Source: Escherichia coli (lineage in GTDB: Bacteria > Pseudomonadota > Gammaproteobacteria > Enterobacterales > Enterobacteriaceae). Taken from it: a stretch of 64,000 bases of DNA. The notes below the pieces were generated by a model. The model had not been told where the DNA came from. It ran no database searches and was given only the letters and a program-made list of their open reading frames with translations. Position 1 is the stretch's first letter. The number at the start of each line of letters is the position of its first letter. The position numbers were made by a program, and so were the translations under genes. Location of the stretch: NCBI RefSeq assembly GCF_030384885.1, contig NZ_CP128613.1, one strand, 5' to 3'. Shown here one piece after another: positions 15,938-59,535 of the stretch.

Positions 15938-16561
15938 GTGGGTATGCTTGAAGCCAGAGAGTTACTTTGCGAGCGGGATGAACGAACCTTATTTAGTGGC
16001 TTGTCATTTACGCTGAACGCAGGCGAGTGGGTACAAATCACCGGTAGCAACGGCGCGGGGAAGACAACGCTTCTCCGTTTGCTGACGGGGTTGTCTCGCC
16101 CTGACGCAGGCGAGGTTCTCTGGCAAGGGCAGCCCTTGCATCAGGTACGCGACAGCTACCATCAAAACCTGTTATGGATAGGCCATCAGCCGGGGATCAA
16201 AACCCGGCTGACGGCGTTAGAAAATCTGCACTTTTATCATCGCGATGGCGATACCGCACAATGTCTGGAAGCCCTGGCGCAGGCCGGGCTTGCCGGATTC
16301 GAAGATATTCCTGTAAATCAACTTTCTGCCGGGCAACAACGCCGCGTCGCTTTAGCGCGTCTGTGGCTGACCCGTGCCACGTTATGGATACTCGACGAGC
16401 CTTTTACCGCGATTGACGTTAACGGCGTCGATCGTCTGACCCAGCGTATGGCGCAGCATACGGAGCAGGGGGGGATTGTGATTCTGACTACCCACCAGCC
16501 GCTCAACGTTACTGAAAGTAAAATCCGCCGCATTTCACTGACGAAAACGAGGGCCGAATAA
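15938..16561 (+). CDS. ccmA: Heme exporter ATP-binding protein CcmA
   Basis: 207-aa ORF; Walker [10 protein letters not shown]; LSAGQQRR signature. Confidence 0.9.
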
Positions 16562-53093: not shown

Positions 53094-54035
53094 ATGCGCG
53101 AAAAGGATTATGTCGTAATTATAGGCTCGGCGAATATTGATGTCGCCGGATATTCACATGAATCATTAAATTATGCGGATTCAAATCCAGGTAAAATAAA
53201 ATTTACGCCTGGTGGGGTAGGGCGCAATATTGCACAAAACCTGGCGTTGCTGGGTAATAAAGCCTGGCTACTGAGCGCCGTAGGCAGTGATTTTTATGGT
53301 CAATCGCTGCTAACGCAAACCAATCAATCTGGCGTTTATGTCGATAAATGCCTGATTGTGCCGGGAGAAAATACGTCGAGCTATTTATCATTACTCGATA
53401 ATACCGGTGAAATGCTGGTTGCTATAAATGACATGAATATTAGCAACGCTATTACAGCTGAATATCTCGCACAGCACCGTGAATTTATTCAGAGGGCAAA
53501 GGTCATTGTCGCGGACTGTAATATCAGTGAAGAGGCACTGGCATGGATTCTGGATAATGCCGCCAACGTACCCATATTTGTCGATCCTGTTTCTGCGTGG
53601 AAATGTGTCAAAGTGCGCGACCGTCTAAATCTGATCCACACTCTCAAGCCAAACCGCCTTGAAGCGGAAACCCTGAGTGGGATTGCGCTGTCAGGGCGTG
53701 AAGATGTGGCAAAGGTTGCCGCCTGGTTCCATCAACATGGCCTGAACCGCCTGGTGCTGAGCATGGGCGGTGATGGTGTTTATTACAGTGATATCGGCGG
53801 TGAAAGTGGTTGGTCTGCGCCGATTAAAACCAATGTCATTAATGTTACCGGAGCGGGCGATGCCATGATGGCGGGACTTGCTTCGTGTTGGGTAGACGGA
53901 ATGCCGTTTGCCGAATCTGTTCGTTTCGCACAGGGATGTTCGTCAATGGCGCTCTCCTGTGAATACACCAATAACCCCGATTTATCGATTGCCAACGTTA
54001 TATCGTTAGTGGAGAACGCAGAATGTCTGAATTAA
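53094..54035 (+). CDS. psuK: Pseudouridine kinase PsuK (YeiC), pfkB family
   Basis: 313-aa ORF with TGAGDAMMAG motif; AT-rich coding sequence. Confidence 0.85.
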   Translation: MREKDYVVIIGSANIDVAGYSHESLNYADSNPGKIKFTPGGVGRNIAQNLALLGNKAWLLSAVGSDFYGQSLLTQTNQSGVYVDKCLIVPGENTSSYLSLLDNTGEMLVAINDMNISNAITAEYLAQHREFIQRAKVIVADCNISEEALAWILDNAANVPIFVDPVSAWKCVKVRDRLNLIHTLKPNRLEAETLSGIALSGREDVAKVAAWFHQHGLNRLVLSMGGDGVYYSDIGGESGWSAPIKTNVINVTGAGDAMMAGLASCWVDGMPFAESVRFAQGCSSMALSCEYTNNPDLSIANVISLVENAECLN

Positions 54036-54961
54036 AAATTTCCCCTGAATTATTACAAATTTCCCCGGAAGTGCAGGACGCTTTAAAAAACAAAAAACCG
54101 GTTGTGGCACTGGAATCGACAATTATTTCTCACGGGATGCCATTCCCGCAAAATGCTGAGACGGCAATTGAAGTAGAAGACACAATTCGTAAGCACGGTG
54201 CTGTACCTGCAACAATCGCCATTATTGGTGGTGTCATGAAAGTAGGTTTGAGCAAAGAAGAAATTGAATTGTTAGGCCGTGAAGGACATAACGTGACGAA
54301 AGTCAGTCGCCGTGATTTACCTTTTGTCGTTGCCGCAGGAAAAAATGGCGCGACCACCGTTGCTTCAACGATGATTATCGCGGCACTGGCAGGAATTAAA
54401 GTATTTGCAACGGGGGGGATTGGTGGTGTGCATCGCGGTGCGGAACATACATTCGATATTTCTGCCGATTTACAGGAACTGGCAAATACTAATGTCACCG
54501 TTGTTTGTGCCGGTGCAAAATCTATTCTCGATTTAGGATTAACAACAGAATATTTAGAAACCTTCGGTGTACCGTTAATTGGCTATCAGACAAAAGCGCT
54601 GCCTGCGTTTTTCTGCCGTACCAGCCCATTTGAAGTCAGTATTCGCCTTGATAGTGCCACGGAAATCGCTCGTGCAATGGCAGTGAAATGGCAAACCGGT
54701 TTGAACGGCGGCCTGGTAGTGGCGAATCCGATCCCGGAGCAGTTTGCGATGCCGGAGGAATCTATCAATGCAGCCATAGATCAAGCTGTCGCCGAAGCCG
54801 AAGAGCAGGGCGTTATTGGTAAAGAAAGTACACCGTTCCTGCTGGCTCGTGTTGCTGAACTGACCGGTGGTGACAGCCTGAAATCCAACATCCAACTGGT
54901 GTTCAACAACGCCATTCTGGCGAGCGAAATTGCCAAAGAATACCAGCGTCTCGCGGGTTAA
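54023..54961 (+). CDS. psuG: Pseudouridine-5'-phosphate glycosidase PsuG (YeiN)
   Basis: 312-aa ORF overlapping psuK end by 13 nt. Confidence 0.85.
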   Translation: MSELKISPELLQISPEVQDALKNKKPVVALESTIISHGMPFPQNAETAIEVEDTIRKHGAVPATIAIIGGVMKVGLSKEEIELLGREGHNVTKVSRRDLPFVVAAGKNGATTVASTMIIAALAGIKVFATGGIGGVHRGAEHTFDISADLQELANTNVTVVCAGAKSILDLGLTTEYLETFGVPLIGYQTKALPAFFCRTSPFEVSIRLDSATEIARAMAVKWQTGLNGGLVVANPIPEQFAMPEESINAAIDQAVAEAEEQGVIGKESTPFLLARVAELTGGDSLKSNIQLVFNNAILASEIAKEYQRLAG

Positions 54962-55054
54962 TTTCTGACGGGCAGAAAGCCGTCGCCCGTACTGATCATA
55001 CATACCAAAACCTGGCGCTAACGCCGGGTTTACTGGCATGAAAGGAAAATCATT

Positions 55055-56292
55055 ATGGATATAATGAGAAGTTTGGTGGGTATGGTGGTATTGCTGGCAA
55101 TTGCATTCTTATTGTCAGTGAATAAAAAAGGTATCAGCATACGCACGGTCGGGGCTGCATTGCTGCTGCAAATCGCTATTGGTGGCATTATGCTCTACTT
55201 CCCACCGGGAAAATGGGCAGTAGAGCAGGCGGCATTAGGCGTGCATAAAGTGATGTCTTACAGTGATGCCGGTAGCGCCTTCATTTTTGGTTCGCTGGTT
55301 GGGCCGAAAATGGATGTCCTGTTTGATGGCGCGGGCTTTATCTTCGCCTTTCGCGTACTTCCGGCAATTATTTTCGTCACAGCGCTCATCAGCCTGCTGT
55401 ACTACATTGGCGTGATGGGGCTGCTAATCCGCATTCTTGGCAGTATTTTTCAGAAAGCCCTCAACATCAGCAAAATCGAATCTTTTGTTGCGGTTACCAC
55501 TATTTTCCTCGGGCAAAATGAGATCCCGGCGATCGTTAAACCGTTTATCGATCGCATGAATCGCAACGAGCTATTTACGGCAATTTGTAGCGGGATGGCG
55601 TCCATTGCCGGTTCGATGATGATTGGTTATGCCGGAATGGGCGTACCAATTGACTACCTGTTAGCGGCATCGCTGATGGTATTTTGTTTGCACGTATTCT
55701 TAGCCCAGCCACCGAGCCTTCGCAGGTGACATTTGAAAATCTGTCGTTCAGCGAAACGCCGCCAAAAAGCTTTATCGAAGCGGCGGCGAGCGGTGCGATG
55801 ACCGGGTTGAAAATCGCCGCTGGTGTGGCGACGGTGGTAATGGCGTTTGTGGCAATTATTGCGCTGATCAACGGCATTATCGGCGGAATTGGTGGCTGGT
55901 TTGGTTTTTCCAATGCCTCTCTGGAAAGTATTTTTGGCTATGTGCTGGCACCGCTGGCGTGGATCATGGGCGTGGACTGGAGTGATGCCAACCTTGCGGG
56001 TAGCCTGATTGGGCAGAAACTGGCGATTAACGAATTCGTCGCTTACCTGAGTTTCTCCCCATACCTGCAAACGGGCGGCACGCTGGAAGTGAAAACCATT
56101 GCGATTATCTCCTTTGCGCTTTGTGGTTTTGCTAACTTTGGTTCTATCGGTGTTGTCGTTGGGGCGTTTTCGGCTATTTCGCCAAAACGCGCGCCGGAAA
56201 TCGCTCAGCTTGGGTTACGGGCGTTGGCAGCAGCAACGCTTTCAAACCTGATGAGTGCGACCATTGCCGGGTTCTTTATTGGTTTAGCTTGA
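55055..56292 (+). pseudogene. psuT: Nucleoside (putative pseudouridine) transporter PsuT/YeiM, frameshifted into two ORFs (55055-55729 and 55684-56292)
   Basis: The two ORFs are in different frames and together span 1238 nt versus 1251 nt for intact paralog nupX; by-eye alignment places a 13-nt gap between 55679 and 55680. Confidence 0.7.
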
Positions 56293-56299
56293 GTTTCAT

Positions 56300-56338
56300 T
56301 GCCGGATGTACGCGCTTATTAAGCGTTGCATCCGGCAA
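56300..56338. terminator. REP-like palindromic hairpin between convergent psuT and yeiL
   Basis: tTGCCGGATGtacgcgcttattaagcgttgCATCCGGCAa. Confidence 0.55.
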
Positions 56339-57188: not shown

Positions 57189-58130
57189 ATGGAAAAGAGA
57201 AAAATTATTCTGGATTGTGATCCGGGTCATGATGATGCTATTGCCATAATGATGGCCGCGAAACATCCGGTGATTGATTTATTAGGTATCACTATTGTGG
57301 CGGGGAATCAAACCCTCGATAAAACATTAATTAATGGCCTGAATGTTTGCCAGAAACTGGAGATTAATGTTCCGGTTTATGCGGGGATGCCGCAACCCAT
57401 TATGCGTCAACAAATCGTTGCCGATAATATTCACGGTGAAACCGGACTTGATGGCCCGGTATTCGAGCCGCTGACCCGCCAGGCAGAAAGTACCCATGCG
57501 GTGAAATATATCATCGATACCCTGATGGCAAGCGATGGCGATATCACTCTGGTGCCGGTTGGTCCGCTTTCAAATATCGCGGTGGCAATGCGTATGCAGC
57601 CCGCAATCCTGCCGAAAATCCGTGAAATTGTACTGATGGGCGGCGCTTACGGTACTGGCAACTTCACCCCATCTGCCGAGTTCAACATCTTTGCTGACCC
57701 GGAAGCGGCACGTGTGGTGTTCACCTCCGGCGTTCCATTAGTAATGATGGGCCTCGATCTCACCAACCAGACCGTTTGCACCCCGGACGTGATTGCACGA
57801 ATGGAAAGGGCAGGCGGCCCTGCCGGAGAGCTGTTCAGCGACATCATGAACTTCACTCTCAAAACTCAGTTCGAAAACTACGGCCTGGCTGGCGGCCCGG
57901 TGCATGACGCCACCTGTATCGGTTATCTGATTAACCCCGATGGCATTAAAACCCAGGAGATGTACGTCGAAGTGGACGTCAACAGTGGCCCTTGTTACGG
58001 GCGTACCGTCTGCGACGAGCTGGGCGTTCTTGGCAAGCCCGCCAATACCAAAGTCGGCATCACTATTGATACCGACTGGTTCTGGGGATTAGTCGAAGAG
58101 TGCGTGCGCGGCTACATCAAAACCCATTAA
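57189..58130 (+). CDS. rihB: Pyrimidine-specific ribonucleoside hydrolase RihB (YeiK)
   Basis: 313-aa ORF with N-terminal DCDPGHDDA nucleoside hydrolase motif. Confidence 0.9.
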
Positions 58131-58229: not shown

Positions 58230-59480
58230 ATGGATGTCATGAGAAGTGTTCTGGGAATGGTGGTACTGCTGGCAATTGCGTTTTTGCTGTCAGTAAACAA
58301 GAAGAAGATCAGCCTGCGTACCGTTGGCGCGGCGTTAGTGTTACAGGTCGTGATTGGCGGCATTATGCTTTGGTTACCGCCAGGGCGTTGGGTCGCAGAA
58401 AAAGTCGCTTTTGGCGTGCATAAAGTGATGGCGTACAGCGACGCAGGTAGCGCATTTATCTTCGGTTCTCTGGTTGGACCGAAAATGGACACCTTATTTG
58501 ATGGCGCAGGATTTATCTTTGGTTTCAGGGTATTACCGGCAATTATCTTCGTTACAGCACTGGTGAGTATTCTCTACTACATCGGTGTGATGGGGATCTT
58601 AATTCGCATTCTCGGCGGTATATTCCAGAAAGCGTTAAATATCAGCAAGATCGAGTCATTCGTCGCGGTCACTACCATTTTCCTCGGGCAAAACGAAATT
58701 CCGGCAATCGTCAAACCCTTTATCGATCGTCTGAATCGCAATGAATTATTTACAGCGATTTGTAGCGGGATGGCCTCGATTGCTGGTTCGACAATGATTG
58801 GTTACGCCGCACTGGGCGTGCCTGTGGAATATCTGCTGGCGGCATCGTTAATGGCTATCCCTGGCGGGATCTTGTTTGCCCGCATGTTAAGTCCGGCTAC
58901 GGAATCTTCGCAGGTTTCCTTTAATAACCTCTCTTTCACCGAAACACCGCCAAAAAGCATTATTGAAGCCGCTGCTACAGGGGCAATGACCGGGCTGAAA
59001 ATCGCTGCAGGTGTGGCGACAGTGGTGATGGCATTTGTCGCCATCATTGCGTTGATCAACGGTGTTATCGGCGGCGTTGGTGGCTGGTTTGGTTTTGAAC
59101 ATGCCTCGCTGGAGTCCATTTTAGGTTACCTGCTGGCCCCGCTGGCGTGGGTGATGGGGGTTGACTGGAGTGATGCGAATCTTGCCGGGAGTTTGATTGG
59201 ACAGAAACTGGCGATTAATGAATTTGTCGCTTACCTCAATTTCTCACCTTATCTGCAAACAGCTGGCACTCTGGATGCTAAAACCGTGGCGATTATTTCC
59301 TTCGCGTTGTGCGGATTCGCTAACTTTGGTTCTATCGGGGTGGTGGTTGGCGCATTTTCTGCGGTTGCGCCACACCGTGCGCCGGAAATCGCCCAGCTTG
59401 GTTTACGCGCGCTGGCGGCGGCGACACTTTCTAACCTGATGAGTGCCACCATTGCAGGATTCTTTATTGGCTTAGCGTAG
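58230..59480 (+). CDS. nupX: Nucleoside permease NupX (YeiJ), CNT family
   Basis: 416-aa intact ORF; close paralog of the psuT reading frames. Confidence 0.9.
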   Translation: MDVMRSVLGMVVLLAIAFLLSVNKKKISLRTVGAALVLQVVIGGIMLWLPPGRWVAEKVAFGVHKVMAYSDAGSAFIFGSLVGPKMDTLFDGAGFIFGFRVLPAIIFVTALVSILYYIGVMGILIRILGGIFQKALNISKIESFVAVTTIFLGQNEIPAIVKPFIDRLNRNELFTAICSGMASIAGSTMIGYAALGVPVEYLLAASLMAIPGGILFARMLSPATESSQVSFNNLSFTETPPKSIIEAAATGAMTGLKIAAGVATVVMAFVAIIALINGVIGGVGGWFGFEHASLESILGYLLAPLAWVMGVDWSDANLAGSLIGQKLAINEFVAYLNFSPYLQTAGTLDAKTVAIISFALCGFANFGSIGVVVGAFSAVAPHRAPEIAQLGLRALAAATLSNLMSATIAGFFIGLA

Positions 59481-59496
59481 TGCGCGAGTTATGAGC

Positions 59497-59530
59497 CGGA
59501 TAAGACGCGGTCAAGCGTCGAATCCGGCAA
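59497..59530. terminator. REP-like palindromic hairpin between convergent nupX and yeiI
   Basis: GCCGGATaagacgcggtcaagcgtcgaATCCGGC. Confidence 0.5.
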
Positions 59531-59535
59531 GATTG

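Follow-up and report, generated by a model that had tools for sequence, protein, structure and literature searches.

A 13-bp deletion divides psuT (yeiM), very probably a null allele in an Escherichia lineage close to strain 2013C-4282

The psuT locus and its lesion

We analyzed a 64,000-nucleotide stretch of Escherichia coli contig NZ_CP128613.1 (the window) that carries psuK, psuG, psuT and the CNT paralog nupX. The gene order in the window (fruA, psuK, psuG, psuT, a convergent yeiL, rihB, nupX, and yeiI) is identical to that of E. coli K-12, where the ortholog, psuT/yeiM (UniProt P33024), closes the psuK-psuG-psuT operon. We assigned psuT orthology by locus, since the gene lies 3' of psuK-psuG, is convergent with yeiL, and is nearly identical to an annotated psuT. 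Over 13.2 kb, the locus is the same as that of strain 2013C-4282, in which psuK, psuG, psuT, yeiL, rihB, and nupX are annotated, except for one single nucleotide polymorphism (SNP) and one 13-bp gap. The features considered here are as follows.

53094 to 54035, + strand: psuK, pseudouridine kinase, first gene of the operon; intact open reading frame (ORF) of 313 aa, identical to the annotated psuK of 2013C-4282
54023 to 54961, + strand: psuG, pseudouridine-5'-phosphate glycosidase; intact ORF of 312 aa, identical to the annotated psuG of 2013C-4282
55055 to 55729, + strand: 5' part of the psuT pseudogene, 224 aa with an ATG start, from the ORF list
55673 to 55680, + strand: deletion junction, from alignments to intact alleles and the repeat computation
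55678 to 56292, + strand: 3' remnant of psuT in the native (-1) frame, codons G213 to A416 plus the stop, from the ORF list and alignment
58230 to 59480, + strand: nupX, intact CNT paralog; ORF of 416 aa with a full-length TIGR00804 match

The first of the two psuT ORFs consists of native codons 1 to 208 followed by 16 out-of-frame codons (55679 to 55726) and a TGA stop codon at 55727 to 55729. The second listed ORF runs from a TTG at 55684 to 56292 and is 202 aa long. Gene callers instead start the 3' remnant at a GTG at 55726 (V229), which gives 188 aa, and this GTG overlaps the upstream TGA as GTGA (55726 to 55729).

A base-by-base alignment of psuT from the window with the intact gene of 2013C-4282 showed a single 13-nt gap and one SNP, and the SNP is private to 2013C-4282. 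The window psuT therefore carries no further change, and the deletion is a recent event. Exactly 13 bases are missing, TGGCGATCCCTGG, which are nucleotides 623 to 635 of the 1251-nt coding sequence (CDS) of 2013C-4282. At the codon level, the loss comprises A209-I210-P211-G212 plus one base. After Met208, the shifted frame encodes 16 foreign residues, VFCLHVFLAQPPSLRR, before the stop codon. The string that spans the junction in the deletion allele is GCTGATGGTATTTTG. When we aligned positions 55600 to 55760 with nupX from the same window, one 13-column gap was again obtained.

These alignments bear out an earlier note on this DNA, which had described psuT as two ORFs in different frames, the second opening at a TTG, and had proposed a 13-bp deletion that removed the A-I-P-G codons. 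It also correctly described psuT of K-12 as intact, with 416 codons (CDS of 1251 nt). The comparison with nupX on which it relied holds, but the nupX string was misquoted in a trivial way; it starts with tcgttaatgg rather than ctgttaatgg.

The gap has four equivalent placements, from 55676|55677 to 55679|55680 (a 3-bp ambiguity), because TGG flanks both ends of the deletion. The deleted block is bounded by the 7-mers CTGATGG and CTGGTGG, which form an imperfect direct repeat (6/7 matches) spaced 13 bp apart, and the CTGATGG retained at 55673 to 55679 is a fusion of the two ancestral copies. We propose that an ancestor very near the cryptic clade I strain 2013C-4282 lost the 13 bp between these imperfect repeats, and the repeats suggest slipped-strand mispairing during replication as the most likely cause. 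The arrangement resembles short direct-repeat deletions (slipped-strand or microhomology-mediated), in which the lost block is bounded by repeats, here spaced by 13 bp, and one repeat copy is retained. However, the perfect homology in the window is only 3 bp (TGG), so the mechanism is one that we infer and not one that can be demonstrated.

A consensus scan reported a terminator-like hairpin at 55658 to 55689, followed by UAUUUUGUUU, exactly at the deletion junction. We rejected a terminator created by the deletion, as the fold is not significant (z score of -1.69) and the intact allele likewise has a hairpin before the same U-run.

Predicted effect on the transporter

Translation from the normal start would yield a product of 224 residues that is shifted after Met208 and keeps TM1 to TM4 and HP1. 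In such a product, TM5 would be incomplete, and both the scaffold helix TM6 and the transport-domain half made up of HP2, TM7, and TM8 would be missing. Two Pfam domains, PF01773 and PF07670, are recorded on a product identical to this fragment. We compared both parts of the gene with the TIGR00804 profile (length of 401, curated cutoff of 442 bits). The 5' fragment matched positions 1 to 200 with 238 bits and the 3' remnant matched positions 221 to 401 with 244 bits, both under the cutoff, while intact 2013C-4282 psuT and window nupX gave full matches (1 to 401) of 514 and 498 bits, respectively. Thus, no single polypeptide from the window psuT contains the whole profile that defines the CNT/NupC family (TIGR00804, or PF01773 with PF07670 and PF07662).

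The lesion also separates the residues expected to bind the substrate. In the Vibrio cholerae transporter vcCNT, base-binding residues lie on HP1 (G153 to E156) and TM4, ribose-binding residues are E332 on HP2 and F366, N368, and S371 on TM7, and the transport domain moves across TM6, a long helix that acts as a scaffold (bioRxiv 10.1101/2023.02.03.527023; eLife PMC4139061). Intact PsuT aligns end to end with vcCNT (3TIJ) and the Neisseria wadsworthii CNT (5L26) with E values of 1e-125 to 1e-131, is 53% identical to the latter, and conserves the HP1, HP2, and TM7 binding residues as well as the MAxPGG motif. Its HP1 residues G153 to E156 correspond to G153 to E156 of vcCNT, and E331, F363, N365, and S368 correspond to E332, F366, N368, and S371. 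The HP1 motif G153-Q154-N155-E156 is encoded upstream of the break, in the 5' ORF, while E331 (HP2) and F363, N365, and S368 (TM7) are encoded downstream of it and in the other frame only. Unlike in the solved CNTs, the halves of the fold are split between two reading frames in the window, and no one chain combines the HP1/TM4 and HP2/TM7 residues into a complete nucleoside-binding site.

The deletion falls within a conserved motif. The affected MAIPGG aligns with MAAPGG of the N. wadsworthii and V. cholerae CNTs. The pattern MAxPGG is invariant in PsuT, NupX, and the N. wadsworthii protein, and P211, G212, and G213 are invariant across our five-sequence alignment. Since the ribose-binding half is gone, the CNT structures lead us to expect neither a nucleoside site nor a normal protomer, and the truncated PsuT product is almost certainly null. 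An AlphaFold2 model of intact PsuT built from the five-sequence alignment had a mean pLDDT of 34 and was unusable for placing the lesion; as a hint only, this low-confidence model has a helix at 199 to 219 that is broken at 210 and a 43-residue helix at 244 to 286, in agreement with TM5 and TM6.

Distribution of the allele and alternative readings of the split gene

We searched 5,426 complete RefSeq E. coli genomes by megablast with positions 55055 to 56292 as the query. psuT was found in 5,413 of these genomes, and in 5,411 of the 5,426 at least 80% of the gene is retained. The best match was 2013C-4282, at 98.9% over a 1251-bp span, and none of the 5,426 genomes exceeded 98.9% identity to the window psuT. 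Because 98.9% is the value for an identical allele without the deletion, the best complete-genome match is the undeleted allele, and among the matches listed, every row covers the undeleted psuT length. An exact scan of the GTDB species-representative genomes for the 36-nt junction gave no match. On these counts, the deletion allele is rare. The junction was also absent from P0004, which is likewise 224 aa long, and from L017 and L018, which share the 188-aa C-terminal ORF; these are other alleles or partial or noisy contigs.

Identity of at least 95% to the window psuT was reached by only 23 of 5,419 matching records, with most E. coli at 88 to 95%. Both of the complete genomes closest to the window, 2013C-4282 and EC42405, are listed under Escherichia cryptic clade I (PMC10100065); the strain is thus atypical for E. 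coli, and this relationship explains the unusual look of the psuT allele. Judged from its sequence, the window comes from a cryptic clade I member that has the stx1-positive 2013C-4282 as a very near relative. Compared with K-12, the window psuT lacks the 13 bp, is frameshifted after M208, and is about 5% diverged in DNA, being the rare cryptic clade I allele; with the frame restored, the protein would be 99% identical to K-12 PsuT.

The segment from about 53500 to 56300 (the 3' half of psuK, psuG, and psuT) diverges between E. coli lineages far more than its flanks do. Identity over this block is 85 to 95% to K-12 and 57 to 90% to strain C8, against 96 to 100% for fruA and rihB. Such a pattern could reflect long-standing allelic lineages or a hotspot of recombination. 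Across alleles that differ by 5 to 11% in DNA, the PsuT proteins are 97 to 99% identical.

The earlier note had posed strain-specific inactivation and assembly error as the two ways to explain the split gene, and the assembly-level evidence settles this in favor of genuine inactivation. An artefact would mean that the genome truly has an intact 1251-bp psuT from which 13 bases were lost in assembly or polishing, a reading in keeping with the truncated product standing under one GenBank protein accession only (CAD6028658.1) and with the deletion being common to no complete RefSeq E. coli genome. Against this, the junction string is present in GCA_904842275.1 (CAJGVI010000001.1) and in Logan contigs from at least three other SRA runs (SRR19266938, SRR34489103, and SRR35948513), and these four loci are 99.97 to 100% identical to the window over 6.7 to 18 kb. 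The exact 224-aa product was called on 14 contigs and the downstream 188-aa ORF on 15. The SRR19266938 locus has two additional private differences from the window and is therefore not merely the same assembly. The comparison with 2013C-4282 across all 64 kb turned up 5 SNPs, a single base in a G-run, and the psuT gap, with no other multi-base indel relative to this closest complete relative, and a 13-bp loss within nonrepetitive coding sequence is atypical of homopolymer or polishing errors. The case thus consists of agreement between independent assemblies and assemblers, with the qualification that the Logan runs could in principle share one circulating strain as their origin. With the junction recurring in independent data that went through a different assembler, we consider an assembly error very unlikely and give it hardly any weight. 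The frame is broken relative to intact orthologs and the lesion is repeated in independently generated assemblies, two of the features by which a genuine frameshift pseudogene is recognized. We consider it very probable, from the sequence comparisons, that psuT (yeiM) carries a true null mutation here, one that arose recently and is restricted to this lineage.

A real deletion could still leave a working gene if the two halves were cotranslated by reinitiation at the GTGA and formed a split transporter, or if ribosomes slipped by -1 near GUAUUUUGU. The overlap of the ORF1 stop codon with a native-frame GTG at 55726 to 55729, the 188-aa downstream ORF predicted by gene callers, the native frame being -1 relative to ORF1, and the U-run at the junction all fit this idea. 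However, reinitiation at V229 would leave the 20 conserved residues 209 to 228 in neither piece, and with them would go the invariant P211-G212-G213, L215-F216-A217, and the last part of TM5. A Shine-Dalgarno core of at least 4 nt precedes the native start (AGGA) but no candidate internal start. We rejected a programmed frameshift at the junction, as the sequence lacks a canonical X XXY YYZ slippery heptamer and the downstream structure is not significant (z = -1.69); moreover, a slip product would still miss four residues of the conserved motif. Residual function by either route is thus highly improbable, and the specific proposal that both halves are made via GTGA reinitiation and form a working split CNT without residues 209 to 228 is equally far-fetched. 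If it were true, it would be a natural elevator-type transporter that works as two polypeptides cut between TM5 and TM6.

A null allele might also have been selected, with PsuT loss being advantageous in some niches and other knockouts representing convergent adaptive loss. There are at least three independent psuT lesions: the 13-bp deletion, a G194* nonsense mutation, and an IS600 insertion in E. coli 2014C-3051. The G194* lineage (GGA to TGA) is widely sampled, with 236 index blocks, and some of its members have a second frameshift. The coordinates of these alleles, and of a nupX loss, in the extracted loci are as follows.

L007 to L010, 3580 to 3582: psuT G194* nonsense mutation
L013, 1379 to 3896: IS600 insertion in psuT of E. 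coli 2014C-3051
L012, 7687 to 7752: nupX reduced to a 66-bp stub in strain C8

Like the window, the G194* lineage and 2014C-3051 inactivated psuT independently and kept psuK and psuG intact, but the lesion type, position, and allelic background differ, and the 13-bp junction occurs in neither. Knockouts of psuT in production strains block pseudouridine re-uptake with no growth cost of their own reported (PMC13090712), which is compatible with an advantage of loss. On the other side, the near-universal retention of psuT among the complete genomes and the conservation of the protein despite its DNA divergence indicate purifying selection species-wide, neutral decay of a dispensable gene would be expected to leave a few independent losses across many thousands of genomes, and no selective agent is known. 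This species-wide conservation argues for occasional neutral decay, and we regard adaptive loss as unlikely, if less so than an artefact or a gene that still works.

Some differences among the close relatives lie outside the deletion. In ccmA, positions 16462 to 16468 of the window form a run of 7 G, against 6 in 2013C-4282; the gene is annotated as frameshifted in 2013C-4282 and is one read-through ORF in the window. Only the reference gene is frameshifted, and the homopolymer problem (or real mutation) therefore belongs to 2013C-4282 and not to the window. In the SRR19266938 locus, rihB has an extra G (position 5754 of L006, window position 57807) that splits the gene into 239 and 94 aa, and the psuT remnant has a SNP (position 3978 of L006, window position 56032). 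These are either assembly noise or a sign that a sister isolate has decayed further.

Transport capacity and significance

Because psuT is last in its operon and yeiL is convergent, nothing downstream is affected and no polarity is expected. The assignment of a substrate to PsuT comes from operon context and the phenotypes of production-strain knockouts (PMC11241209, PMC13090712). K-12 PsuT had no detected uptake of uridine, cytidine, xanthosine, or gemcitabine, and NupX had weak uridine and cytidine transport (PMC11241209). In pseudouridine-producing strains, psuT knockouts were reported to inhibit pseudouridine re-uptake (PMC13090712). From the sequence, this strain has probably lost or reduced PsuT-mediated uptake of exogenous pseudouridine.

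The earlier note had argued that the lesion would leave the strain with a kinase and a glycosidase but no cognate transporter. Its first half stands, since psuK and psuG are intact; the second is overstated, as nupX, 2.5 kb downstream of psuT, is intact and encodes a protein 88% identical to intact PsuT. NupX is a possible partial backup for PsuT. PsuK and PsuG should still process intracellular pseudouridine from RNA turnover.

The nupX-yeiI spacer in the window (59481 to 59535) is 55 bp long, versus 106 bp in K-12, and local identity dips to 73%. A small repeat element present in the K-12 spacer is possibly absent from the window.

The psuT lesion is an ordinary lineage-specific frameshift pseudogene and not a new kind of feature, and its importance beyond the annotation of this strain is very little. 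The GenBank record, which has two "nucleoside transporter" CDSs, should have one frameshifted psuT pseudogene, and PsuT-mediated pseudouridine uptake should be removed from metabolic models of the lineage. The junction is a handy 13-bp marker for a cryptic clade I sublineage close to 2013C-4282. Taken with the other losses of psuT and nupX, the deletion shows that some lineages can do without one or the other gene of this CNT paralog pair, despite the species-wide conservation of psuT.
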